From: Acidimicrobiaceae bacterium
GTDB taxonomy: Bacteria; Actinomycetota; Acidimicrobiia; Acidimicrobiales; Aldehydirespiratoraceae
Length of the DNA: 64,000 nt
Assembly (NCBI GenBank): GCA_026706815.1
Contig: JAPOYA010000013.1
Coordinates: 20,378 to 84,377 of the forward strand
Direction of reading: 5' to 3'
Shown here in pieces: positions 3,069 through 64,000 of the stretch. Below the pieces are notes generated by a model. It had not been told where the DNA came from. It did no database searches and saw only the letters and a list, made by a program, of their open reading frames with translations. The translations under genes and the position numbers were made by a program. Every line of letters begins with the position of its first letter. Within the stretch, counting starts at the first letter, position 1.

Positions 3069-5635
3069 GCCAGTGCGCGCTCGCGGTTGGATTCAGCCTG
3101 CATCGGCAATTCGCTGCGCCACTCCCCGTCGAAGTTGCGCAGGGCCGTGGCCACCGCTCCCGCGGTGGGAACCAGCCCGATCTCGCCGACGCCCTTGATC
3201 CCGTATGGAGAGTTGGGCTCAGCCGACTCAACAAGGATCACGTCAACCGGCGGCATGTCCTTGGGGCGGATGATCCCCAAGCTTCGCAAAGTCGTATTGT
3301 CGGGCCTGCCGACCTCATCGCAGGGGAACCCCTCGGTCAGCGCATAGCCCAAGCCCATATGGACCGACCCTTCGATCTGGCCTTCACACAGCAACGGGTT
3401 GACGGCCCGGCCCACGTCGTGGGCAGCGACAACGTTCTCAATCAGGCCAGTCTCCGGGTCAAGCACAACGAGTTGGGCAGCGTAGCCGAAAGTGGAGTGA
3501 ATGATCGGGTTCTCAACACCGTCGGACAGCGAGTTGGTCCAATCGACGCGGTACTCGCCCTCGTAGTCGACGCCCGTTCTGCAACCGTCCGCCAGCGCGT
3601 TGCGGCAGGCCTCCTGCACCGAGCCGGCGCCCATGAGAGTGCCCCTCGAGCCAGTGGTCTGGCCCGCTCCCAGCTCGCGGGTGGTGTCGACGATCACCTC
3701 GATGCGCTCAGGGTCGATGCCGAGTTCTTCCACCGCCACCTGCAGGGCAACCGTGTGTACTCCCTGGCCCATCTCGGTCCAGCAGTGCCTGACTTCCACC
3801 TGGCCGTCCTCACGGAAATGAACCACCGCCCTGGCGATCTCCTTGAAGCCGTTGCCGAGACCGGAGTTCTTGAGGCCGAGGCCGAGCCCGACTGGCTTGC
3901 CCTCGGCAACAGCCGCGTCGTAGGCAGGCTTGACCGCGTCGAGACAGGCTCGGGCGCCGAGACACCCGTCGTCCATAATCTGCCCCGGGCCCCATATGCG
4001 ACCCGGCTCGACCACGTTGCGGTTCCGCATCTCCCAACCGCTGATCCCGACCGCGTCGGCAAGGCGGTCCATGACCCCCTCCATGGCGAACTGGGCCTGG
4101 TTGGCGCCGAAACCGCGGAACGCGCCGCCTATAGAGTTGTTGGTCCGCGCTGCTATCGCCTCGACATCGATGTTGGGGACGACGTAGGGGCCGCTGGCAT
4201 GGCCCGCAGCCCGCTCAAGCACCTTCATCCCCACCGAGGCGTATGGACCCGAGTCGCCCAGCATCCGCGCGTGCAGGGCTGTGAGTTTGCCGTCGGCATC
4301 ACATCCGGCTTGGTACTCCATGCGGATCGGATGCCGTTTGGTATGCACGAGCAGCGATTCCTCGCGTGAGAATGTGGTCTTGACGGGACGACCCAGCAAC
4401 CAAGCCGCCAGCGCCGTCTGGCCCTGGTTCGACATGTCCTCCTTGCCGCCGAAAGCACCGCCGTTCGACACGAGTTCGACAGTGATCCGCTCGGGGTCGA
4501 TGTCGAGGACAGCCGCTATGTCGTTGCGGTCGTCCCAGATTCCCTGCCCCCCGCTGTAGACCATCAAATCGCCGTTGTCCTCGGGCACTGCCAGGGTGGA
4601 TTCGGGTTCTACGAAAGCGTGGTCGATGCGCTGTGTCTGGAAGGTCTCACGCACTACATGGGCTGCGCTTGCCAGAGCAGCCTCAGCATCGCCGCGCGAA
4701 TAGACGGATCTCGACAGGATGTTGCCTTCCAACCCCCAGACGGCGTCCTCGTCGGAGGCGACCGCTTCAGCAGGGTGAACCATCGGCGGCAACACGTCGT
4801 AGGCGATGTCGACGAGGTCCGCTGCGGCCCGGGCGGTCTCACGGTCGCCGGCCACCACCATTGCCAGCACATCGCCGAGATAGCTGGTGCGACCCCCGAC
4901 CGGGATGAAGATGGGCCAGTCCTTGTGAATCAGACCCACGCGTAGCTTGCCCGGGACGTCGGCAGCGGTAAGCACCCGCTCAACTCCCTCGACTGCTTCG
5001 GCTCTGCTCGTGTCGATGGCGATGATGTCGGCGCGGGCGTGATCGGCAAGCTTGAACGCTCCGTGCAGCAGACCCTCGGGTCGCATGTCGTCGATGAAGG
5101 GACGCAGTCCGACTGCCAGTTCGAGGCCTTCGTATTTGACGCCGCGGCTGCCGATGCCGCCGGGTGTGACAGGTTCGGGGATGTCGCCCGAAGTCAGCGC
5201 TTCAACTGCGTCGAGAACTTTGATGTAGCCGGTGCAGCGGCACAAGTGCCCACCAAGGTGGCGGGACGCTTCTTCACGGGTGAGCGCCGATCCCTTGCGA
5301 TCAAGCAGGGCTTTGGTGCGGACCACGATCCCCGGGGTGCAGAACCCGCACTGCAGCGCGCCGCATGCCGCGAACGCGCGGGCCATGCGGTCAACCTCTT
5401 CAGGATCGAAACCCTCGAGCGTGGTGATCGCGGTTCCCTCAGCGCGGTCAAGACCGACCTGGCACGCAACCCGAGCTCTGCCGTCGATCAATACGGCGCA
5501 GCAGCCGCATTGTCCGGTGGGCGAACAACCGTCCTTGGGTGAGGTGATATCCAACTCTTCGCGCAGCGCGCTCAGGAGATGTGGATGGTTCCCGCGGATG
5601 GTTACCGGAGTTCCGTTGAGTTCAAATGTGGTCAT
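3059..5635 (-). CDS. XdhD-like molybdenum hydroxylase: fused [2Fe-2S] + molybdopterin-binding subunit, no FAD domain
   Basis: 858 aa. The N-terminus has CSPTGQCGCCAV and CGFCTPG...CRCTGY iron-sulfur motifs. These are followed by the aldehyde oxidase/xanthine dehydrogenase hammerhead and MoCo domains (GGAFGGKEDMS). Confidence 0.85.
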   Translation of the reverse strand: MTTFELNGTPVTIRGNHPHLLSALREELDITSPKDGCSPTGQCGCCAVLIDGRARVACQVGLDRAEGTAITTLEGFDPEEVDRMARAFAACGALQCGFCTPGIVVRTKALLDRKGSALTREEASRHLGGHLCRCTGYIKVLDAVEALTSGDIPEPVTPGGIGSRGVKYEGLELAVGLRPFIDDMRPEGLLHGAFKLADHARADIIAIDTSRAEAVEGVERVLTAADVPGKLRVGLIHKDWPIFIPVGGRTSYLGDVLAMVVAGDRETARAAADLVDIAYDVLPPMVHPAEAVASDEDAVWGLEGNILSRSVYSRGDAEAALASAAHVVRETFQTQRIDHAFVEPESTLAVPEDNGDLMVYSGGQGIWDDRNDIAAVLDIDPERITVELVSNGGAFGGKEDMSNQGQTALAAWLLGRPVKTTFSREESLLVHTKRHPIRMEYQAGCDADGKLTALHARMLGDSGPYASVGMKVLERAAGHASGPYVVPNIDVEAIAARTNNSIGGAFRGFGANQAQFAMEGVMDRLADAVGISGWEMRNRNVVEPGRIWGPGQIMDDGCLGARACLDAVKPAYDAAVAEGKPVGLGLGLKNSGLGNGFKEIARAVVHFREDGQVEVRHCWTEMGQGVHTVALQVAVEELGIDPERIEVIVDTTRELGAGQTTGSRGTLMGAGSVQEACRNALADGCRTGVDYEGEYRVDWTNSLSDGVENPIIHSTFGYAAQLVVLDPETGLIENVVAAHDVGRAVNPLLCEGQIEGSVHMGLGYALTEGFPCDEVGRPDNTTLRSLGIIRPKDMPPVDVILVESAEPNSPYGIKGVGEIGLVPTAGAVATALRNFDGEWRSELPMQAESNRERALAWQ

Positions 5636-5658: not shown

Positions 5659-6906
5659 CTACCCGTCTTCATCGGCCAAGCCTCGCAGAACGTGCAACAA
5701 CACGTTGGCTCCGGCGGCGATGTCGTCTGGTTCGGTGTACTCGAAGGGGTTGTGCGAAAGGCCCATCCAGCTGGGGGTGAAGATCATGGCGGTTGGACAG
5801 ACTCGGGCGAGCATCTGCGCGTCGTGCCCGGCGCCCGAAGGCATCCGCTTGAACGAATGACCCAGTGCTTCGGCGGTGGCGGCAACCCGGTCGACAACCT
5901 CAGGGTCGAAGACAACCGGCTCGAAACGGGCCAGCGACCTGGAGGTGATCGTCACGTTCTCGCTTTCGGCCAGTTCATCACAGAACACGGCGAGCTGTTT
6001 TTCTGCCTGCTGCAGCATCATCTCGTCGGTGTTGCGGAGGTCGACCGTGAGCGTGGCGTTGGCGGCCACGACGTTCACGAGGTTCGGGTGCAGCTTGATC
6101 TGCCCGACCGTCGCAACCTGCCGACCCCCGAGTTCCAAGGCGAGCTCGCGCACGAACACAGCGATGCGGGCCGCCGCATATCCGGGATCGCGTCTCAGGT
6201 TCATAGGCGTGGTGCCTGCATGGTTCGATTGGCCTTTGATGGTGATCTCGGTCCAGCTGATCCCTTGAACGCTCTCCACAGCCCCGATCGTGACGCCTTC
6301 AGCTTCCAGTACAGGCCCCTGTTCAATGTGCAGCTCCACGAACGCATGGGGCGCCGCGGCCGGGCAGGGAGCTCCGCCCCGGTAGCCGATGCGGTCCAGT
6401 TCCTCTCCGAGGACCGCTCCGTCGATTCCAACAGTGTCAAGTCCCTCTTCGAGGCTCATCCCGCCCACATAGACGAGGCTGCCCAGCATGTCGGGCGGGA
6501 ATCTCGATCCCTCTTCGTCGGTGAAGAACCCCACAGCAATCGGGCGGCGGGTCGACAGTCCGGCCTCGGAGATCGTCTCGACCACTTCGAGGCCGGCCAG
6601 CACACCGAGGTTGCCGTCGTATCGTCCACCGGTGCGGACGGTGTCGATGTGCGATCCCGTCATGACTGGATCAAGAGAGGCGTCGGTGTCCGGGCCCGCC
6701 CAAACCGCGGTCACATTGCCGATCCCGTCGATGGTGATCTCCGTCCCGAGGTCGCGCATCCAGGTAAGGACCAGATCCCGGCCCGCTTTGTCCTCGTCGG
6801 TCAATGCCAGACGCGCGCAGCCGTCGGTGTTCTCAATCGCGCCGATCCGGGCGAGTTCGTCGATCCGCCCCATAAGCCGGTCAACGTTGATCCTAAGGTC
6901 CTCCAC
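5659..6906 (-). CDS. M20-family Zn-dependent amidohydrolase (allantoate amidohydrolase / N-carbamoyl-amino-acid hydrolase type)
   Basis: 415 aa. The N-terminal pattern RLMGRIDELARIG...GCARLALTDEDKAGRDLV, SHIDTV and GRYDGNLGV are typical of this family. Confidence 0.8.
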   Translation of the reverse strand: MEDLRINVDRLMGRIDELARIGAIENTDGCARLALTDEDKAGRDLVLTWMRDLGTEITIDGIGNVTAVWAGPDTDASLDPVMTGSHIDTVRTGGRYDGNLGVLAGLEVVETISEAGLSTRRPIAVGFFTDEEGSRFPPDMLGSLVYVGGMSLEEGLDTVGIDGAVLGEELDRIGYRGGAPCPAAAPHAFVELHIEQGPVLEAEGVTIGAVESVQGISWTEITIKGQSNHAGTTPMNLRRDPGYAAARIAVFVRELALELGGRQVATVGQIKLHPNLVNVVAANATLTVDLRNTDEMMLQQAEKQLAVFCDELAESENVTITSRSLARFEPVVFDPEVVDRVAATAEALGHSFKRMPSGAGHDAQMLARVCPTAMIFTPSWMGLSHNPFEYTEPDDIAAGANVLLHVLRGLADEDG

Positions 6907-6967
6907 GGCCGTATTCTTACACCAAAATGGGCAATTCTCTAGGAAAACTGTCCGAGCATGTTCCAGG

Positions 6968-8464
6968 TCAGGGTTGGGCGCCGGCCATCAAGAGGCCCAA
7001 GTCTTCGACGGTGCAGTCAGAGCGGTCGATGACCGCAACGATCCGACCCTCAAACATGACCGCCACGCGATCGGCGAGTGCCAGGACCTCGTCGAGGTCT
7101 TCGGACACGACAAGCACGGCCGTTCCCTGCTCGCGTTGGGCGATCAGGCGCTCGTGAATGTACTCGGCCGCACCGATGTCGACCCCGCGGGTCGGTTGCG
7201 CCGCGATCAGCACCGCCGGTTCAGCAGACAACTCTCTGGCCATGATCAGCTTTTGGATGTTGCCTCCCGACAGAGCACTGGTGGCAGTGTCGATCGACGG
7301 AGTTTTGACGTCGTAGTGCTCGACGAGCCGACCGGCTCGCTCCCGCAGAGCGGGCAGCTTCAAGAATCCCCAACGCGAGTACTCCTGCGAATCGTGGTTG
7401 AGCAGCATCAGGTTCTCGTTGACACTGAACTGAGCTACGGCACCGTGAAGCATGCGCTCCTCAGGAACAAAAGCGAGACCGGACGCGCGGCAGCGTCTTG
7501 GTGAGGCGCCTGTGGTGTCCTGACCGTCGAGCAGAACGGTGCCGTCGGTGACCGGGCGCAACCCGGCCACTGCTTCACAGAGCTCACGCTGACCGTTGCC
7601 GGAAACGCCTGCGACACCGACGATCTCACCGGCGGCGACAGAGAGGTCAACCCCATGAACCGCCAAAGCGTCGCGATCACCCATGACACTGAGGTTTTTG
7701 AGTTCCAGCCTGGACTCACCCGCCGTCACTGGTGGTTTGTCGGGAGCGAGTTTCACGGGTCGGCCCACCATCATCTGGGCGAGTTGTTGTCGAGACGTCT
7801 CACCGGGGGTCGTCGACCCCGAAACCCTGCCGTCACGCAGCACGGTGATCCGGTCCGACAAGGCCATCACCTCATGGAGCTTGTGAGAAATGAAGATGAG
7901 GCCGCGCCCGTCGTCGGCGATCTGCCTGAGGGTCACAAAGAAGTCGTTGACCTCCTGGGGGGTCAACACCGCGGTCGGCTCGTCTAGGACAAGCAGTCGA
8001 GCATCCCGGTAGAGCGCCTTGAGGATTTCAACTCGTTGACGTTCCCCCACCGCGAGCTGCCAGATCAAGGCATCTGGATCCACGTCGAGGCTGTAGGTTT
8101 CTGACAGTCCAGTGAGGCGTTCGCGGACTTGATCCATGTCAGCGGTGCCCAGCCCCAAGGCCACGTTCTCGGTGACCGTGAAGGTGGGGACCAGCATGAA
8201 GTGCTGGTGGATCATCCCGATGCCGGCTTCGATCGCGGCAGCGGGAGAATCGACCTGAAGCGGCTCTCCCTCGAAGTCAATGGTCCCCTCATCGGCGGCA
8301 TAGAGGCCGAAGAGGATCTTCATCAATGTGCTTTTACCTGCCCCATTCTCGCCGAGGAGCGTATGCACCTCGCCGCGACGCACATCAAAATCAACACTGT
8401 CGTTGGCGAGCACTCCGGGAAATCGCTTGGTGATTCCCCTCATCTCGAGCATCAAGTCAGTCAT
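6968..8464 (-). CDS. ABC transporter ATP-binding protein, duplicated cassette (BMP/nucleoside-type importer 1)
   Basis: Contains Walker [10 protein letters not shown], signatures [15 protein letters not shown] and [15 protein letters not shown], and Walker B LLVLDEPT. Confidence 0.9.
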
Positions 8465-8544: not shown

Positions 8545-9789
8545 TCAGCCGACCCTGGTGGTTACGTCACCTGCGATAACCGCTTCGATGGTGGAGTCCA
8601 CCAAATCGGTGATGCTGTCGGGCACGTCCCAGTTGCCGTACTCGATTTGGAGACCGCCATTCTCAAGGTTGATCTCATAGCTGGAGCCGCCGAGATCGCC
8701 GTTGTTGATGTCATCGACGAGCTGTTGGAGGGCGACTTCCCAGCGGTACACCTGGCTTGCCGCTACCACTCCGTCTTCTGCTGCGCCGGTCTGGTTCGAC
8801 TGCGTCCCGAACCACAAGACGCCTTCATTCTCGGCGACGCTGATCGCCCCCACGGTCATCTGAGCCGTGCCAGTGAGGATGTCGGCGCCGTTGGACACGA
8901 ACCCTGTGGCAGTCTCAGACGCAAGCTGCACATCGGCGAAAGACTCTGTGTAGACGACGTTCACTTCCGCTCCGCCCGCTTCTGCGCCTAGGCGGAAGCC
9001 GTCCACGTACAGCTTGGCATCGCCGACCTCGATCGGACCGACAATGCCGACGTTGCTGCCGAGTTCGGCGGCAGCAGCGCCGAGGACGTATCCGCCCTGG
9101 TCTGATGCAGCCGTGTAGGCGGACACGTTTGGCAGACCGAACGTGTCGACCGCGGTGCCCCAGGCGAATGCGGTGTCGGGGAAGTCGGGAGCGATCTCCT
9201 GGATCAAGCCGCCGTACTGCGAGCCGTGCCCGATGATCAGGTCGATGCCGCTCTCGGCGTACTGGCGCAACGCCACACCGGCATCTTCAACGATGAAAGT
9301 TCCCGGCGTTATAACATGCGACGAAATTCCATCAAGACGTTCGACGCTGTCGACGATGCTCTGAGTGAACGCCAAGTCGTTCTCGGCGCTCGGAGCGACG
9401 ATGGCCACACTGATTCCCTCATGGTCGCCGCTGTCGTCGGCCATGTCCGAGCCGTCGTCAGCCATGTCCGAGCCGTCTTCGTCAGCCATGTCCGAATCGT
9501 CTTCGTCAGCCATGTCCGAGCCGTCGTCAGCCATGTCCGAGCCGTCTTCGTCAGCCATGTCCGAATCGTCTTCGTCAGCCATGTCCGAGCCGTCGTCAGC
9601 CATGTCCGAGCCGTCTTCGTCAGCCATGTCCGAATCGTCTTCGTCAGCCATGTCCGAGCCGTCGTCAGCCATGTCCGAGCCGTCGTCGCCCGAATCCACT
9701 TCCTCGGCGTCGTCATCATCTCCACACGATGCGGCTACGAGGCTGAACGCAGCGAGCAACGCCACAAGAAACAACATTGTCTTTTTCAT
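8545..9789 (-). CDS. BMP-family (PnrA/Med-like) substrate-binding lipoprotein 1 with Asp/Met repeat tether
   Basis: Has a signal peptide and lipobox (LVAASCG), then about 90 aa of DDGSDMA/DEDDSDMA/DEDGSDMA repeats, then a BMP-like periplasmic binding domain. Confidence 0.85.
   Translation of the reverse strand: MKKTMLFLVALLAAFSLVAASCGDDDDAEEVDSGDDGSDMADDGSDMADEDDSDMADEDGSDMADDGSDMADEDDSDMADEDGSDMADDGSDMADEDDSDMADEDGSDMADDGSDMADDSGDHEGISVAIVAPSAENDLAFTQSIVDSVERLDGISSHVITPGTFIVEDAGVALRQYAESGIDLIIGHGSQYGGLIQEIAPDFPDTAFAWGTAVDTFGLPNVSAYTAASDQGGYVLGAAAAELGSNVGIVGPIEVGDAKLYVDGFRLGAEAGGAEVNVVYTESFADVQLASETATGFVSNGADILTGTAQMTVGAISVAENEGVLWFGTQSNQTGAAEDGVVAASQVYRWEVALQQLVDDINNGDLGGSSYEINLENGGLQIEYGNWDVPDSITDLVDSTIEAVIAGDVTTRVG
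9440..9688. repeat. 69-bp tandem repeat, three identical copies plus a partial fourth, inside the SBP1 coding sequence
   Basis: The unit gccatgtccgagccgtcgtcagccatgtccgagccgtcttcgtcagccatgtccgaatcgtcttcgtca occurs identically at 9440-9508, 9509-9577 and 9578-9646, with a partial copy running to 9688. Confidence 0.95.
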
Positions 9790-9823: not shown

Positions 9824-10759
9824 TCACCCGTCGCGACTGAATGGAACTGTGAGCGCTGCGGGTTGATCAGCGGCCCGGCGGGCGATGATCGCTAATGCGA
9901 TCACAGTAAGGACAGCGGGTGCCATGGTGGTGAGACTCGCTGTCGCTCCCGTGACAATACCCAGTGTTTTCCACTGTGTCACGGTCGCCGTTATCAACCC
10001 GTAGAGCAGAGACCCCGCCAGCACGCCTACCGGACGCCAAGCTCCGAAGTAGACGAGCGCTACAGCTATGAAGCCGATCCCGTTGGTCAGATTGTTCTGG
10101 AATGTGCCGAGTTCGATTGTCAGCGCCGCGCCGGCGAGTCCCGCCAGCCCGTTCCCGACGAGGATCGCAACGGCCCTGGTTCGGAAAACGCTGACACCCA
10201 GAGAATCGGCTGCCTCGGGGCTTTCGCCTACTGCCCGAATATTGAGTCCTAGGGTGGTGCGATTGACGACGAGTGTCAGCACCGGAACCATCAGCACGGC
10301 CAGATAGACCAGCATGCTGTGATTGAAGAACATGTTGCCGATGTGCGGTATGTCGCCCAGCAGCGGAATCTTGAGATCATCGAATGAAGGAATGCCGCGG
10401 GGTATGCCGACCTGCTTGAGGAACAGCAGTTCGCTTATCCCCAAACCGAACAGGTAGATGCCGATGCCGCTGATGCCCTGTTCGGCCTTGAACACCAGCG
10501 TCACAATCGCGTAGGCGATCCCCATTGTCAGACCCACCCCAAGGCCCACCGCGACTCCGAGCAGACGCGAGTCGGTTTCCAAGACCGTCCAGTAGGCGAA
10601 GAAGGCTCCCAACAGCATTACGCCGTCCACGCCCAGATTCAGCACGCCGCTGCGTTGGCCGATCGTCTCGCCGAGCGCGGCAAGCAAGTAGGGGGTGGCG
10701 AGGCGCATGCCGGAAGCAAACGTGGCCACCAGAACCGACAGTGTGAAGAAGTCACTCAT
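9824..10759 (-). CDS. ABC transporter permease (importer 1)
   Basis: 311 aa polytopic membrane protein. It overlaps the upstream permease gene by 8 nt. Confidence 0.85.
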   Translation of the reverse strand: MSDFFTLSVLVATFASGMRLATPYLLAALGETIGQRSGVLNLGVDGVMLLGAFFAYWTVLETDSRLLGVAVGLGVGLTMGIAYAIVTLVFKAEQGISGIGIYLFGLGISELLFLKQVGIPRGIPSFDDLKIPLLGDIPHIGNMFFNHSMLVYLAVLMVPVLTLVVNRTTLGLNIRAVGESPEAADSLGVSVFRTRAVAILVGNGLAGLAGAALTIELGTFQNNLTNGIGFIAVALVYFGAWRPVGVLAGSLLYGLITATVTQWKTLGIVTGATASLTTMAPAVLTVIALAIIARRAADQPAALTVPFSRDG

Positions 10760-11876
10760 CGGTCGGCTGTGTTTTTGCTGCGACGCTCTGGGTTCGCATG
10801 CGGGAGATGTCCATCGCTTGGCGGAGACGATCCCGCACGCTGGTACTGCTCACAACGAACACCACGATCAGACCGTTGAGGCCGATCACCAATGCCGAAG
10901 GAATCTGGATGGCCCGCTGCATGGCGTTTGCGCCTACGAGCAATCCTCCGAACAGGAACGACGACGGGATGGTCCACAGCGGGTGAAGCCCCCCGAACAG
11001 CGCTGCCACGATGCCGTTGAATCCAGACGATCCCGTGAACCCCAGCGATGATCCGTCGGTGATCAGTCGATGTGACTGGCTCCCGAACACCAGCACAGCG
11101 CCGGCCAGTCCGCACATCGCCCCGGAGTAGGTGAGCGCCAGCATGGTCATGCGCTTGAAAGGCATGCCCGCGTAGTTGGCAGCAGCGGAGTTGTGCCCCA
11201 CCGCACGGGTCTTGAACCCGACCGTCGTGCGCCACAGGAAAACCCACGCAATGACCGAGGCGACCAGGGCGATCACCACGCCGAGGTGCAGGCGGGTGCC
11301 CTCGATCAGGATGGGCAGGTCGGCATTCTCCGACAGTCGCTCAGTCTGCGGGATGCGTGTTCCGCGTTGGATTTCGAGGGGGTCGATCAGCGGATCGCGC
11401 AGCAGATAGTTCATCACCTGAATGGCGACGATGTTCAACATGATCGTGGAGAGGATTTCGTTGACGCCGAGATAGGCCTTCAAGGCTCCCGGGATTGCTC
11501 CCCAAATGCCTCCACCGATGATCCCGGCCAGCATGACAGTCGGTATGAGAACGATTGGGGGAAGATCGGGGACGGCCAACGCGGTGACCGTTGAAAGCAG
11601 TGCTCCCACAACGATCTGTCCCTCGCCGCCGATGTTTATGACCTTGGCCCGAAAAGCAATGCAGATGCCGGTGCCCACCAACAACAGCGGCATGGCCCGA
11701 ACCGAGGTGTCGGCGAGGGCGTCACCGCTGCCGAACGCACCCTTGATGAGTTCGCCGTATCCGACAAGGGGATTGGCGCCGAGCACGATGATCACGACCG
11801 CGCCGACAGCGAGCGCTGCCAACGCCGCCACAAGAGGGACGAGGCTCCCGCTGAACCGATGGAGAAGGCTCATCAT
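10752..11876 (-). CDS. ABC transporter permease (importer 1)
   Basis: 374 aa polytopic membrane protein, first gene of the transporter block. Confidence 0.85.
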   Translation of the reverse strand: MMSLLHRFSGSLVPLVAALAALAVGAVVIIVLGANPLVGYGELIKGAFGSGDALADTSVRAMPLLLVGTGICIAFRAKVINIGGEGQIVVGALLSTVTALAVPDLPPIVLIPTVMLAGIIGGGIWGAIPGALKAYLGVNEILSTIMLNIVAIQVMNYLLRDPLIDPLEIQRGTRIPQTERLSENADLPILIEGTRLHLGVVIALVASVIAWVFLWRTTVGFKTRAVGHNSAAANYAGMPFKRMTMLALTYSGAMCGLAGAVLVFGSQSHRLITDGSSLGFTGSSGFNGIVAALFGGLHPLWTIPSSFLFGGLLVGANAMQRAIQIPSALVIGLNGLIVVFVVSSTSVRDRLRQAMDISRMRTQSVAAKTQPTDE

Positions 11877-15876: not shown

Positions 15877-17172
15877 GTGAAATCTGCAGAAGGAAACAAA
15901 GGCACGAAGGCGCTGTGGCGTGTTCTGGCTCTACTCCTGGTTTTCGTCATGATCGCTGCTGCTTGCGGCGACGATGACGGTGACGATGGAGAAGCCGACG
16001 ACGGCTCGACCGCAAGCGACGACATGGACGACGGCGACATGGACGACATGGACGACGACGGCCATGACCACGACGACGACATGGACGACGACGGCCATGA
16101 CCACGACGACGACATGGATGACATGGACGACGGCGACATGGACGACATGGATGACATGGGCGACATGGACGGCGACTTCTCTGCGGCATTCCTGTACATC
16201 AGTCCCGTGGGCGAAGCCGGCTGGACATGGGCTCACGACCAGGGCCGTCTGTACGCTGAAGAGGCAACAGGCATCCCAACCGTCTTCGTCGACAGTATTG
16301 ACGACACGTCAGCAGCCGACACCGAAGCGGCGATACGCACACTCGTCGCCGACGGTCACGACGTGATCATCGGAACGTCCTTCGGCTATATGGACACCAT
16401 GGAGGCAATGGCCGACGAGTTCCCCGACGTCGTCTTCGAGCATGTCTCGGGCTACAAGGCCAACGAGACCAACTTCGGCAACACCTTCGGCAAGATCTAC
16501 CAGCCCCGTTATCTGACGGGCATGATCGCCGGCGCAGCCACCGAGACCAACCAGATCGGCTACGTTGCGGCATTCCCGATTCCTGAGGTTGCTCGCGGGA
16601 TCAACGCCTTCACGCTCGGAGCCCAGCGGGTCAATCCTGACGTTGAAGTCGTGGTCCAGTGGACCAGCACCTGGTTCGACCCGGCGATCGAGGGCGATGC
16701 GGCCGACGCGCTCCTCGAAGGTGGGGCAGACGTCATTGCGATGCATCAGGACACCACCTCCGCGGGTCTCGCCGCCGAAGCCGCAGGTGCTCGCTGGGTG
16801 TCCTACAACTCCGACATGAGCGAATTCGCTCCGGACGCCTACCTTGCCTCGGCCATTTGGAACTGGGGTCCGCGGTATGCGGAGATCATCTCGTCCGCTG
16901 CCGACGGCAGCTACGCGCCCGGGTTCTACTGGGGCGGCTATGCCGATGGAATCGTCGACATCGGCTCTATTGCCGACGACGTCGACTCTGACATAGTCGC
17001 TCAGGTGCAGGACATCCGCCAGCAGATGATCGACGGCACCTTCGCAGTGTTCTCAGGTCCCCTGTTCGCCCAGGACGGCACGCAACTGCTGGCCGAAGGC
17101 GAAGTCATGGATCCAGGAATGCTGCTGGGCGAAGCGTTCTTCGTCCAGGGCGTCGTCGGCGACATCGGCTAG
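15877..17172 (+). CDS. BMP-family substrate-binding lipoprotein 2 with Asp/Met/His-rich tether
   Basis: I place the start at GTG 15877, which lies 7 nt after GGAGGGG. The ORF-track ATG at 15793 would add an implausible leader. The lipobox is IAAACG, followed by an acidic linker and a BMP-like domain. Confidence 0.8.
   Translation: MKSAEGNKGTKALWRVLALLLVFVMIAAACGDDDGDDGEADDGSTASDDMDDGDMDDMDDDGHDHDDDMDDDGHDHDDDMDDMDDGDMDDMDDMGDMDGDFSAAFLYISPVGEAGWTWAHDQGRLYAEEATGIPTVFVDSIDDTSAADTEAAIRTLVADGHDVIIGTSFGYMDTMEAMADEFPDVVFEHVSGYKANETNFGNTFGKIYQPRYLTGMIAGAATETNQIGYVAAFPIPEVARGINAFTLGAQRVNPDVEVVVQWTSTWFDPAIEGDAADALLEGGADVIAMHQDTTSAGLAAEAAGARWVSYNSDMSEFAPDAYLASAIWNWGPRYAEIISSAADGSYAPGFYWGGYADGIVDIGSIADDVDSDIVAQVQDIRQQMIDGTFAVFSGPLFAQDGTQLLAEGEVMDPGMLLGEAFFVQGVVGDIG
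16018..16176. repeat. GAC/ATG-rich coding low-complexity repeat containing a perfect 33-bp unit x2 (16051-16116)
   Basis: The unit gacgacgacggccatgaccacgacgacgacatg occurs twice in tandem. The region encodes DDMDDGDMDDMDDDGHDHDDDMDDDGHDHDDDMDDMDDGDMDDMDDMGDMDGD. Confidence 0.9.
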
Positions 17173-44227: not shown

Positions 44228-44287
44228 TGCCGCCTGTTGGGCCTTTCGGTCTGCTTCTTTGCGTTCCGTCTCGGAGGAACCGTCGTA

Positions 44288-44320
44288 ATCTATAGTAGTG
44301 CGCCTTTGACTGGCAATAGT
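44288..44320. promoter_or_regulatory. 33-nt conserved motif, copy 1, in the dehalogenase/DUF2855 divergent promoter region
   Basis: atctatagtagtgcgcctttgactggcaatagt matches 50034-50066 at 27/33 positions. In both copies it is followed after exactly 12 nt by TAGGNT (here TAGGAT, 44333-44338, 7 nt before the ATG at 44346). Confidence 0.55.
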
Positions 44321-44345
44321 TAGCCCAAGTGCTAGGATCCGACCC

Positions 44346-49617: not shown

Positions 49618-50033
49618 AACCAACCAACTCAGCCTGATTCGGGGCTCCCGACCGCACTGAGCACGTCAACTATTGTCTTGCAGGTGAACGAAGACTCCGA
49701 GAGCGGATCTTGGGCTTCGTCGCCTGGCAACCGCAAGTCGATGCAACGAAGCGAGTTGAGATGACGACATCCAGTGCTCTCCGACACACGGCCCCGAGCG
49801 GTGGCGCGTCATCGCAGCGCAAAATTGCGAAGCAATGAAACACCCGTTAAAACCCGCGACGTGGCGCGACCGGACTCCATGAGAACCAATAGGACGAGCT
49901 CGAGAGGTTCCCGTAAACGGCCGACACAAGACTTCGCTGACGACCCGGTAGCACCGATGTCCTCTAATCGGCGACCGCCTGGCGAACAGACTATGTCTCC
50001 TGCCACCGAACTGAGGACCCTCATAACCTCCTG

Positions 50034-50066
50034 ATCTTAACTAGTGCGCTTTTGACTGGCAATGGT
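50034..50066. promoter_or_regulatory. 33-nt conserved motif, copy 2, upstream of the GST-like gene
   Basis: atcttaactagtgcgcttttgactggcaatggt is followed after 12 nt by TAGGCT (50079-50084). The GST-like GTG start is at 50158. Confidence 0.55.
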
Positions 50067-50157
50067 CGGCTGCATCGTTAGGCTTCGCTCGTTCAGCCTC
50101 AAGCTGATCGAACGGGTTCGCTGAGCGAAGGGACGCTATGAGCGAAAGGCGTCTGTC

Positions 50158-58353: not shown

Positions 58354-58609
<256 letters not shown>

Positions 58610-61222: not shown

Positions 61223-61819
61223 TCAGCTCCAACTCTCCGGGTCCACTGGGTCACCTCCGAGCACGATGTCGTTATAGGCGGGATCGGGCGTGACCGAAAC
61301 ATCTGGCCCCGCCCAAATGTTCGCTGCGGTTGCCACCTCGGCTCGAGCGCCTCCTGTGCCCCACTGCACGTACGCCAGGATGTTGTCGGGCGACCCGAAG
61401 TCGCTGTTGTTCGCGTACAGCGCCGCTTCGCCGCCGGCCGAGTTCAGTCCTCCGACCGCCGAAGCAGGTATCTCAACTGTCGCCCCCGCGTCGATGACGG
61501 CACCGGTCACCTCCGTTCCGAGGTCGGTGTATTGCGGGAACTGGCAGATGTAGATGCCGTTGACATTGGCTTCGGTGTTGCCGCGGTTCTGAACCCGCAC
61601 GAAACCGCCGTCTCCGAACTGGACCCCGGTGATCACCAGATCGCCGAGGGCCACGGCGTCCTGGGGGATCGGCACAGTGGTCGACGTCGTGGATGTGGTC
61701 GGGGCGGTCTCTGTTGGCTGAGACTCAACGCTTTCGTCGGAGTCATCGCCACCGCAGCCCGCCAGCAACAGCGCAAAGGTCACCAGACACGTTGTCATCC
61801 CAAGGCGAATGGACCGCAT
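61223..61819 (-). CDS. lipoprotein with lamin-tail-domain-like beta-sandwich
   Basis: The ATG at 61819 lies 6 nt after GGGAGG. The lipobox is LLAGCG. The VITGVQFGDGGFVRVQNRGNTEANVNG pattern resembles LTD domains, but the assignment is tentative. Confidence 0.5.
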   Translation of the reverse strand: MRSIRLGMTTCLVTFALLLAGCGGDDSDESVESQPTETAPTTSTTSTTVPIPQDAVALGDLVITGVQFGDGGFVRVQNRGNTEANVNGIYICQFPQYTDLGTEVTGAVIDAGATVEIPASAVGGLNSAGGEAALYANNSDFGSPDNILAYVQWGTGGARAEVATAANIWAGPDVSVTPDPAYNDIVLGGDPVDPESWS

Positions 61820-61915
61820 GAGACCTCCCTCTTCGTCCTCGACACTAGAGACCGCGCGCACAAGCCCCAACAAGCTGAGACCTCAATCCACGCATGCTTG
61901 AGAATACACCACGCT

Positions 61916-61952
61916 CATGGGGGGAGTCCCTCCCGCTGAGGGACCCCCCATG
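61916..61952 (-). terminator. GC-rich hairpin (9 + 6 bp stem, 2-nt bulge, 5-nt loop), possible displaced terminator of the ABC-permease operon
   Basis: The sequence catggggggAGtccctc-ccgct-gagggaccccccatg has no U-tract. It lies 140 nt downstream (minus-strand sense) of the duplicated permease 3' end. Confidence 0.4.
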
Positions 61953-62091
61953 AAACGCGTCCCGATGTGTCCGCCGCTCACATCGAGTACGTCCGCCGAA
62001 CAGACATGTTGGCAGGACTCGAAGACAAACTGAGTCGGCAATCCGACACAAAGAGTGTCAGATATCCGACACAAGCCGCGACGCGGTTAAC

Positions 62092-62231
62092 TCAGTGCAC
62101 ATCGAAGCGGCGAAGCACGACCGCCCAAGTCAGCACGGAGCTGACCGCGACCAACGCCAGAGAGGCCACCGCGCCTTGAGCGAGGGCTCCACGTTCACCT
62201 GCGCCCCAGACCTCCGTCGCTAGCGTGTCGA
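62092..62231 (-). repeat. 140-bp direct repeat, copy 1: detached copy of the last 46 codons + stop of the ABC permease gene
   Basis: 137/140 nt are identical to 63266-63405. All three differences are synonymous third-codon positions in the permease frame. Confidence 0.9.
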
Positions 62232-63265
62232 CTTAGTCGGTACTATTGTCTGTTGTCGCCCGTGTTCACCGAATTATCGTGGTGTGTTCGGCATGCCTAA
62301 CCATCGCCTGAGGAGGTCTCAACGTGAACTCAGAGGGCGCATATTGCTGGATGTCTGCCTAGAGTCATGATTTTGCTCTGTGCGAGTCGTTTGGCGGCTG
62401 CCGGACTGATCGTCACCTTGATCACTAGTTGCGGGAACCGAAATCAGGATGCCGGGTTGGTCGACAGTGTTGAACCTGTCCACGGAGATGATGCGATTGA
62501 GGAGCCACTGAAACCCAGCGCTCCCAATCAAGACGAGTCTGTTGAGAACCTTCTTGACGATCCTGATGAGGACCTGCCGGAAGAAAATCTTCTTGAAGAG
62601 GCTGGAGCGTGGCTGGAAACACAAGAATTACCCGATGAAGGGGTACCACAGGGTTTCATCGCTATCGACCGTCTTCTCGGGGAATGCGTTCGAAGCTTTG
62701 GCATTGAAGTACTTGAACCCGAAGCTGCGTATCGTTCCGGGGTGTACTACTTTCGTTCCGGGGATCAACTCGAGCGAGTGACATTGATCAATGCGGCGTG
62801 CGAGAACGCGCTTTCTGACCGAGGAGTCATCCTCAACGCCGACTCTGCGGCCTTTACCATTGTGTATGAATCCTACGTTGAGGTACACAGCTGCCTCATT
62901 GAGAACGGATTCCCCACCACCTATCCTCCAACACTCGACGCTTTCATCGATTCTCCCCATGCCTGGACGCCTTGGAAGGAGATGATCGGCAATTCGAGTC
63001 CTATTTTCCTCGAATCGCCACCCGCTGATGGGCCACTGACGACATATTACGAGTCATTGCTCATCTGCCCTCGCCCGTGAAGTTGTACTCGGATGCAGTT
63101 GCCCTCTCCAGATGAAACAAAGCGCAGGTACTGCCTGTTGATACCGCGCGCGCGAAAAATCGGGCTCTTGGTGATAGGTTTCGCTACCGGTGTTGGCTTG
63201 ACGATTTGGGCTGGCGCGTTTATCTGGGCATCACCCCGACGAACACCCGCCTTGAACAGTCAAAA
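62232..63265. mobile_element. 1,034-bp lower-GC insert bounded by the 140-bp direct repeats (no recombinase gene)
   Basis: A hand count of 62581-62640 gives 27/60 G+C, against 40/60 for 63421-63480 in the flanking permease gene. The insert contains one lipoprotein ORF and one short TM ORF. Confidence 0.5.
62367..63080 (+). CDS. lipoprotein of unknown function carried on the insert
   Basis: 237 aa. The lipobox is LITSCG, followed by an acidic linker and a Cys-containing globular part. I do not recognise a family. Confidence 0.5.
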   Translation: MILLCASRLAAAGLIVTLITSCGNRNQDAGLVDSVEPVHGDDAIEEPLKPSAPNQDESVENLLDDPDEDLPEENLLEEAGAWLETQELPDEGVPQGFIAIDRLLGECVRSFGIEVLEPEAAYRSGVYYFRSGDQLERVTLINAACENALSDRGVILNADSAAFTIVYESYVEVHSCLIENGFPTTYPPTLDAFIDSPHAWTPWKEMIGNSSPIFLESPPADGPLTTYYESLLICPRP

Positions 63266-63405
63266 TCAGTGCACATCGAAGCGGCGAAGCACGACCGCCC
63301 AGGTCAGCACGGAGCTGACCGCGACCAACGCCAGAGAGGCCACCGCGCCTTGAGCGAGAGCTCCCCGTTCACCTGCGCCCCAGACCTCCGTCGCTAGCGT
63401 GTCGA
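63266..63405 (-). repeat. 140-bp direct repeat, copy 2 (functional 3' end of the permease gene)
   Basis: See copy 1. This copy is contiguous with the rest of the permease ORF. Confidence 0.9.
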
Positions 63406-64000
63406 ACCCGATCGGGGCCAACAGCAACGTGGCCGGGAGCTCCTTCATGGTGGAGAGCATCACCAGCCCGGCGCCGGCAAGAAGGCCTGGTGCCATGAGT
63501 GGCAGCTCGACGGTTAGGAATCGTCGGGAGCGGCTCGCTCCCAGGGTCGCCGCGGCATCGCTGTAGGCGTCCGGCACCGCCTCCACAGCAACGTGGGCCG
63601 CCCGACTCGCCTGGGCGCCGAAGTGCAGGATATAGGCGACGATCAACAACGGAAGGGTCTGATACCAGCGTCCGATGATTGGGGCGTCTATGGCCCAGAA
63701 AACCAACGAGAGAGCAATCACAACGCCGGGAAGAGCGAAGCCCGCAACGACCATGGAATTGGCAGCGCCCGCAACCCGACTTCGATAACGCCCGGTCAAC
63801 CAGGCAATCGGCAACACGACCGCAATGGCGGCCAACGCGGTGATCAGACCAACCTCGGCGGTGTGCAGCGCCGGTTCCACGAGAGCCCCGAAGTCGATTC
63901 CCAGACCCACCGAGTCGATGTCGGCGGTGAGACCTCGCCAAGCCCAGAAGCCGAGCACCGCCACTGGTCCGATCAGTGCATTGCCGATGAAGGCTGCAAC
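63266..64000 (-). CDS. ABC transporter permease, FbpB/ThiP-like (C-terminal part; gene continues beyond the window)
   Basis: Has the EAA-type loop DAAATLGASRSRRFLTVELPLMAPG. The frame stays open and hydrophobic from 63965 to base 64000. Confidence 0.8.
   Translation of the reverse strand, partial: VAAFIGNALIGPVAVLGFWAWRGLTADIDSVGLGIDFGALVEPALHTAEVGLITALAAIAVVLPIAWLTGRYRSRVAGAANSMVVAGFALPGVVIALSLVFWAIDAPIIGRWYQTLPLLIVAYILHFGAQASRAAHVAVEAVPDAYSDAAATLGASRSRRFLTVELPLMAPGLLAGAGLVMLSTMKELPATLLLAPIGFDTLATEVWGAGERGALAQGAVASLALVAVSSVLTWAVVLRRFDVH

Follow-up and report, generated by a model that had tools for sequence, protein, structure and literature searches.

A duplicated permease gene end enclosing the remnant of an accessory operon in an uncultivated member of the Acidimicrobiales

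The 64,000-nt stretch analysed here, called the window, was taken from contig JAPOYA010000013.1 of the Acidimicrobiaceae bacterium assembly GCA_026706815.1 and is part of the ENA scaffold ROBB21-1_SAMN13943208 scaffold_251. Close to its end, it carries the 3' end of an ATP-binding cassette (ABC) importer permease gene twice, as direct repeats enclosing an island of 1,034 bp. The functional gene lies on the minus strand; its stop and last 46 codons, as revealed by repeat search, alignment and translation, make up copy B (63266-63405), and the rest of it, traced by open reading frame (ORF) and family scans, occupies 63406-64000 and leaves the window. With coordinates beyond 64000 placed via locus L001, the gene extends to window-equivalent coordinate 64825, and the substrate-binding protein and ATPase genes of the importer lie upstream. 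It encodes a fused two-domain ABC permease of 519 aa (BPD_transp_1), for which the best NCBIfam matches were PhnU2-like (PhnU2/ModB-type) and not specifically FbpB or ThiP. An earlier note on this DNA had called the protein FbpB/ThiP-like, which is right as to an ABC permease and approximate as to the label.

Copy A (62092-62231, minus strand), recognised by repeat search, alignment and comparison of flanks, again consists of the stop and 46 codons and is untranslated now, with an in-frame TAA directly upstream of it. The repeat search of the window returned 62089-62231 and 63263-63405 as a pair of 143 nt with 97% identity, and alignment of 62092-62231 with 63266-63405 confirmed the earlier count of 137 identical positions out of 140. 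On the minus strand both copies translate into the same 45 residues followed by the stop (DTLATEVW...RRFDVH*); the three mismatches (CGT/CGG, GCC/GCT and ACT/ACC) all fall on third positions and are synonymous. Under neutrality, this outcome has a probability of about 0.03 and is, taken alone, weak evidence for coding constraint. The search of the 64-kb window revealed no other gene-end duplication. Copy A passes into 12 nt (62232-62243, minus strand) that alignment with the related loci L004 and L005 identifies as its decayed continuation, showing several substitutions and a 1-nt deletion relative to these, and the illegitimate join to the island comes next.

On the plus strand, the island begins with a left arm (62244-62366) which, aligned with L005 and L004, contains the ribosome-binding site and the first two codons (GTG AAC, 62324-62329) of a gene for a secreted protein of about 114 aa. 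It is followed by a lipoprotein gene, recognised as an ORF (62367-63080, 237 aa, lipobox ITSC) and the sole intact gene of the island in the window, and by an N-terminal stub of a PG_binding_1 gene (63093-63265), identified by blastn and alignments and comprising about 57 codons including the membrane anchor. The short transmembrane ORF that had been listed as a gene in its own right (63093-63353) is this membrane-anchor stub running on into the antisense of copy B. The island has a GC content of 0.536, compared with 0.621 in the window as a whole and 0.62-0.65 in the flanks, so that the dip noticed earlier by hand count is real and smaller than that count had it. Intact islands of relatives, with 0.58-0.59, also lie below their flanks (0.62-0.65).

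On its other side, copy A is still joined to the native downstream DNA of the permease gene. The segment 62025-62091 (minus strand), compared with the flanks of L009, L011, L012, L013 and L017, is the sequence that follows the permease stop directly. A 23-nt operator-like repeat is present three times, twice within 62025-62072 and once at 61870-61892, each spanning a TGTGTCGGATATCTGACAC-type palindrome; such palindromic repeats are kept between the native permease stop and a hairpin in clades I and II and are likely to be the operator, by prediction, of the lp198-TauD genes downstream. The GC-rich hairpin itself (61916-61952, minus strand; fold -38.2 kcal/mol, z -4.1) is likewise kept in both clades, about 125-135 nt 3' of the permease stop in relatives without the island. 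A U-tract is lacking, a terminator scan did not call the hairpin, and an Rfam search of 61700-63500 returned no credible RNA family, so that the hairpin is not a known RNA. Its strength and native position downstream of the gene, as stated earlier, stand; the terminator role ascribed to it is plausible.

Scanning the full permease against species-representative genomes returned 80 loci. The nearest belong to metagenome-assembled genomes of Acidimicrobiales, many labelled Candidatus Aldehydirespiratoraceae and several being long-read chromosomes; judging from isolate names alone, we take these relatives to be perhaps sponge symbionts. In 11 close relatives (L009, L011-L019 and L022; permease 91-97% identical at the protein level) the site is empty, as it is in the more distant L023 and L025 (81% and 76%). 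In these genomes the lp198 lipoprotein gene follows about 200-350 nt after the permease; the TauD and deacetylase genes come next in L009, L011-L019 and L022 and were not detected in L023 and L025. An exact-sequence look-up of the lp198 protein returned no record. The bases after the stop at empty sites read GTTGACC..CGTCGCGGCTTGTGTCGGATATCTGACAC, followed by the conserved hairpin, and the window has this same sequence next to copy A, which is therefore the original end of the gene. The locus is thus a true insertion relative to an empty site common among relatives, and both the insertion and the native surroundings of the detached copy had been correctly read from the window. In the clade II empty-site genomes L018, L019 and L022, short tandem repeats of CGATCAGTGCATTGC / CGATCAGCGAAGTAT type occupy the first ~100 nt after the stop (11561-11660); none occur in clade I.

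The arrangement is not a one-off mis-assembly, because it was reproduced in a second sample and in a separate Logan contig. A 2,713-bp contig from the separate sample SAMEA7723698 is 100% identical over window-equivalent positions 62130-64842 and includes the junction of insert and copy A, two of the three single-nucleotide polymorphisms (SNPs) distinguishing copy A, and the entire copy B; the Logan contig runs across the whole insert, and the long-read 3.5-Mb chromosome OZ220692.1 of a relative has the same architecture. An artefact, either a mis-join caused by the repeats or a merging of strain variants into a chimera, could be suspected since contigs L002 and L003 end inside the repeats, as collapsed repeats in short-read graphs would, but the junction with copy A-specific SNPs plus copy B in an independent sample and the long-read chromosome both contradict it, making it extremely improbable. 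Besides a mis-join, the earlier note had named two further findings that would speak against an insertion, namely the same arrangement with native GC in all relatives and a detached copy belonging to a longer paralogous gene; neither was found.

Orthologous detached copies, with the same join and the same left arm, are present in L004 (the same locus as L010, OZ220692.1) and in L005-L007 (GCA_044628435.1 and two Logan contigs). In all of these, the repeats enclose about 4 kb with a five-gene operon encoding a secreted protein of about 114 aa, the lipoprotein, a PG_binding_1 protein (343 aa), a LolD/MacB-type ABC ATPase (221 aa) and an FtsX permease (351 aa). Compared with this operon, the window has suffered two deletions: one of about 0.33 kb took the small ORF from its third codon on (joint 62328/62329), an ORF that is kept in L005, L008 and L093, and the other, of about 2.7 kb, took the PG_binding_1 gene from about codon 57 together with the ABC ATPase and FtsX genes, its joint at about 63262-63265 adjoining the permease stop codon. 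What had been regarded as a 1-kb insert forming a unit is the remnant of an operon of about 4 kb after these two deletions.

The lipoprotein matched no Pfam or NCBIfam family, and its homologues form eight clusters, all within island copies of Acidimicrobiia; its AlphaFold2 model, built from 8 sequences, was poor (pLDDT 55, pTM 0.43), and Foldseek against the PDB gave no match below E = 1. The small secreted ORF had no Pfam match even at E <=10 and did not match the Lactococcin_972 family. For the ABC ATPase, the best match was LolD-like, with TIGR03608 (lactococcin-972 export) second-best at 146 bits against a cut-off of 254.85. A bacteriocin/immunity cluster of lactococcin-972 type is consequently no more than a guess, there being no family match and an ATPase below the cut-off, so that the likeness is one of gene content alone. 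Judged from its sequence, the cargo hints at a system for the export of, or immunity against, a secreted peptide.

The two gene ends differ far more in the relatives than in the window. The repeat of L004 and L005 is about 12-15 nt longer than that of the window (codons A-P-I-G-F), the sequence still matching the gene there; in L010 it measures 155 nt with 87% identity, compared with 140 nt and 98% in the window. In the window, copies A and B show 3 differences; in L005 and L010 the number is 17-18 in 141 sites, with 16-17 synonymous. In L005, 16 of the 17 differing codons are synonymous, A37V in copy A being the single nonsynonymous change; copy A has two of the 17 sites to itself (one of the two synonymous), copy B has three, and the other 12 show states that functional permease genes of other lineages have too. 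Since random changes to this segment would be nonsynonymous in about 70% of cases, copy A of L005 and L010 cannot have been drifting neutrally for most of the time in which A and B diverged. Each copy is the end of a functional allele distinct from that of the other, or has been renewed from alleles of this kind, an origin on which the three differences of the window are uninformative. The claim that both copies evolved as coding sequence, weak from the window alone, is well supported by these relatives, and the allele pattern in L005 supports the earlier proposal of a gene end brought along by the incoming DNA. In the window, the 140 nt have probably been homogenised by gene conversion or by recombination with empty-site strains, because the adjoining 62232-62243 is heavily altered while the 140 nt are 98% identical to copy B. 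Comparing A and B of L005 with the window copies revealed no single crossover point inside the repeat, A-like and B-like states being interleaved. Upstream of copy B, no imported tract is visible in the permease gene, the divergence between L010 and the window being uniform at about 10%, copy B included.

The islands themselves also vary. Between L004 (5645-9557) and L005 (4823-8852), the flanks including copies A and B are about 100% identical (0-2 differences per 100 nt), in contrast to 10-25 differences per 100 nt in the island. The divergence sets in at the permease stop and, at the opposite end, about 45 nt into the left arm. This pattern suggests replacement of the cassette by homologous recombination, or else a long-lived polymorphism or balancing selection. 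Between the window and L005, the divergence of the island is not below that of the flanks.

The operon was also found in other arrangements. In L008, L094 and L095, it stands directly after the permease stop with a single gene end and no duplication, and no alignment was obtained between the left arms of these three and that of either L005 or the window. L094 shows a 9-nt direct repeat, CCGCGACCG, at both island boundaries (230-238 and 4161-4169), about 38 nt after the permease stop, which could be microhomology, a target duplication or chance. In L089-L092, the operon is present in degraded form, with glmS on one side and acpS on the other; coordinates given here are those of L089. At 13 nt past the FtsX stop, 21 nt (9889-9909; TCAGTGGGCGTCGAGCCGGCG, antisense RRLDAH*) match the permease end of clade II at 20 of 21 positions, and this copy therefore derives from a permease-adjacent one. 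It is flanked by 95-nt direct repeats of 94% identity (7568-7662 and 9909-10003), which consist of unrelated local sequence, with an adjacent local duplication of 167 nt and 96% identity (6813-6979 and 7659-7825); through one of these duplications, the lipoprotein gene has become fused to the beginning of a local ORF of 130 aa. At 6980-7420 and 7779-11559 of L093, an intact operon follows three tRNA-like sequences, read by eye, and precedes a malic-enzyme gene, the GC content of the operon being 0.607 compared with 0.51 in the host region. No flanking repeats of at least 25 nt were found around it except for one chance-like pair of 26 nt with 81% identity.

The spot after the permease stop also harbours other DNA. 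In L020 (11561-16170) it contains a 4.3-kb insert with a GDSL lipase, an unknown protein and a Na+/H+ exchanger, in L021 (11561-12186) a small insert of low GC, and in L024 (from 11561 onward) genes for a helix-turn-helix (HTH) protein and an SLH/beta-lactamase-like protein; none of these three has a recombinase there. A tRNA-like string after the permease stop of L020 was discarded, ARAGORN making no call. Overall, the spot looks like a hot spot for variable DNA.

Gene-end direct repeats, an empty site and deviating GC are traits expected of an integrative element, and the earlier note had proposed entry of attP type mediated by a recombinase. No gene of an integrase, resolvase or transposase family (Phage_integrase, Resolvase, Recombinase and transposase families) is recorded among the called genes within 6-10 kb, or up to the contig end, of the island loci L001, L004, L005, L008 and L089-L095, and a direct scan of the island proteins revealed none either. 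Nor do the insertion sites share an att core: L008, L094 and L095 are without a repeat, the repeats of L089 are unrelated, and L093 has none that is credible. Together, the lack of a recombinase, the repeat-less insertions and the different repeats at the second site argue against that proposal. A transposon or insertion sequence was rejected as well, there being no transposase and no inverted repeats at the island ends, and the repeat measuring 140-155 nt. Scanning metagenome contigs with a degenerate pattern for the join of island and copy A gave 29 matches, all by chance, as none of these contigs had the permease end, the lipoprotein or DNA resembling the locus.

Taken together, the locus is probably the scar of a horizontally acquired accessory operon that settled beside the permease gene, at its 3' end, and decayed afterwards. 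The ancestral order, kept in most relatives, is permease, stop, operator-like repeats, hairpin and lp198-TauD genes. In the window and two related lineages, the place between codon -51/-46 and the original end is taken by a second gene end (about 50 codons and the stop), followed by a short spacer and by the operon; from this placement it follows that copy A is the displaced end of the recipient and that copy B came with the operon. The recipient would have had an empty site, and the donor would have been a relative in which the operon already stood directly after the stop of the same permease, an arrangement that exists in three other lineages (L008, L094 and L095). Because of this position in the donor, the incoming DNA would have carried the gene end along. 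Homologous exchange within the permease gene on one side, with the opposite end of the donor DNA joined illegitimately to codon -51 of the recipient, would then have left the last ~50 codons of the recipient and its flank behind the cargo. Such a route corresponds to homology-facilitated illegitimate recombination (HFIR) or to an equivalent single crossover of a circularised fragment, that is, insertion-duplication of Campbell type, neither of which would need a dedicated recombinase. Two later deletions in the lineage of the window took the small-protein gene and the PG-binding, ABC and FtsX genes, and gene conversion or recombination with empty-site strains would account for its few differences between A and B (3 compared with 17-18). 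Of the two boundaries, the one in homologous sequence is reflected by the continuity of copy B with the permease and by the existence of donor-type genomes, and the novel one by the left arm, which abuts permease codon -51/-46 and is orthologous in the window, L004 and L005.

Several points weigh against this history. The imported tract that HFIR predicts upstream of codon -51 is not visible when L010 and the window are compared. A crossover inside the repeat, whether of Campbell type or site-specific, fits equally well. As neither an imported tract nor a switch point in the repeat is visible, HFIR and insertion-duplication of Campbell type are inseparable here. The same join in three lineages could reflect a single ancestral event or repeated integration of one circle, and the site is empty in L009, the closest relative of the window at the locus, so that loss or horizontal spread has to be assumed.

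Among the alternatives, a cassette that cycles without a recombinase would use the gene-end repeats of 140-155 bp as portable homology arms: RecA-mediated recombination of A with B would excise a circle with one repeat and restore the permease, and the circle would re-enter another strain by a single crossover, so that each copy stays periodically in a working gene and copy A remains coding-like. This would explain why copy A of L005 and L010 has acquired no more than two private changes although its join recurs in a lineage diverged by about 10%, why the distance between A and B varies (3 compared with 17-18) while the join is the same, why near-identical genomes contain island alleles about 16% apart, and why the closest relatives have empty sites. 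However, gene conversion and ordinary recombination with the many empty-site strains explain the same patterns, the island of the window and L005 is no less diverged than the flanks, and neither excision nor a circle was directly observed; a circle would have no junction absent from the integrated form and could not be revealed by short reads. We therefore regard such cycling as unlikely, and give no greater chance to its extension, in which operon and gene end form a recombinase-free mobile cassette whose diverged alleles are kept by frequency-dependent selection of toxin/immunity type, the lipoprotein of the window being an orphan immunity gene. Site-specific integration, with the last ~50 codons of the permease in attP, restoration of the gene end and an integrase acting in trans or since lost, would account for repeats that sit at a gene 3' end and leave the gene intact, for the empty site, for island GC under that of the host, for an identical join in three lineages and for an allele swap between L004 and L005 bounded near the repeats. 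Yet no recombinase is recorded in or near any island locus, three lineages have the island after the same stop without any repeat, the repeats between glmS and acpS are unrelated local sequence, hence no shared att core, and the 155-bp repeat, with its scattered differences, has no recognisable core; we rate this explanation a little lower still.

Much less probable is a tandem duplication in situ of gene end and operon followed by deletions, without any foreign gene end. The near-identity of the window copies would suit it, as would the glmS-acpS copy, which shows a tandem-type join with D3a abutting D2b. It would, though, leave copy A followed by spacer and FtsX instead of by the native flank, so that an extra, precise deletion is needed, and the 17-18 differences in L005 and L010 are mostly polymorphisms shared with functional genes of other lineages, which is unlike neutral decay.

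The acquired-operon history can be compared with known systems. Campbell-type insertion-duplication results from a single crossover of a circular molecule. It shares with our locus the geometry of repeat, insert and repeat, a repeat that is the homology on the incoming DNA, and reversibility by loss between the repeats; unlike it, the island has no plasmid or replicon functions, and a circle would require end-joining of a chromosomal fragment. Integrative elements insert into the 3' ends of tRNA, tmRNA or protein genes and restore them from attP, and Williams (2002, Nucleic Acids Res) is said to be one source on them. As in those elements, direct repeats of a 3' end bracket foreign DNA, the gene is intact and relatives have empty sites; in contrast to them, there is no integrase, the repeat is not common to the other sites of the island, and the same cargo occurs at the same place without any repeat.

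HFIR, for which PMC3240628 gives a definition, also goes by the name "homologous recombination at the border"; the work on it (de Vries & Wackernagel 2002, Prudhomme et al. 2002, Meier & Wackernagel 2003) is cited in PMC5361080 as references 41, 42 and 47. Our locus resembles it in that one side is joined via shared permease sequence and the other is novel (62231-62243 next to the left arm of the island), that there is no recombinase gene and that the donor would be a relative. Unlike in HFIR, the event was not observed experimentally and is deduced from comparative genomics of uncultivated Acidimicrobiales, and the join lies upstream of the end of the shared sequence, so that 140-155 bp are duplicated instead of recipient DNA being deleted. 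According to the relevant part of PMC5361080 (Kirchberger et al. 2017), HFIR has been put forward as the process behind displaced 3' ends and orphan immunity genes in arrays of type VI secretion systems (T6SS), Rhs and contact-dependent inhibition (CDI) loci. In the orphaned 3' ends of T6SS effector-immunity, Rhs and CDI loci described there, too, an anchored incoming module shifts the resident 3' end downstream, a detached gene end lies beside cargo without an integrase, and close strains have very different cargo alleles. Here, on the other hand, the displaced and the new end encode the same protein sequence, with no swap of a toxin domain, the target is the permease of a housekeeping-type ABC importer, and the cargo is an operon of a lipoprotein, a PG-binding protein and a MacB-type exporter for which a toxin-immunity role is a guess. 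The mechanism is already known and the instance is new.

Some further features of the window and its relatives were recorded. All relatives examined keep a tRNA-Met gene (58528-58604 in the window) next to an HTH_3 regulator, beyond the deacetylase-TauD-lp198 block at its far side; an ORF of 244 aa that had been listed over 58528-58604 is largely spurious, the annotated HTH protein having 106 aa. A 59-nt direct repeat with 71% identity (44283-44341 and 50029-50087) contains TTGACT...TAGGAT-like promoter elements and may be a regulatory region shared by two operons 5.7 kb apart. In-frame tandem-repeat arrays occur within ORFs at 9365-9757 and 15971-16188, one with units of 21/24 nt and the other with units of 9/15/24 nt; read from its repeat units, the latter array appears to encode Asp/His/Met-rich repeats, perhaps metal-binding.

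The scar described here is clear but ordinary as a result of gene transfer and leaves the current understanding otherwise unchanged. Long direct repeats of a gene end are by themselves no proof of an integrase-driven element, which is relevant to the automated prediction of islands and att sites. The locus provides a natural example of accessory genes that enter and leave chromosomes without mobile-element machinery, with stages visible across relatives: empty site, donor-type arrangement, displaced end, allele swap, decay by deletion, and relocation with a 21-nt fossil. It also documents active recombination in uncultivated Acidimicrobiales.

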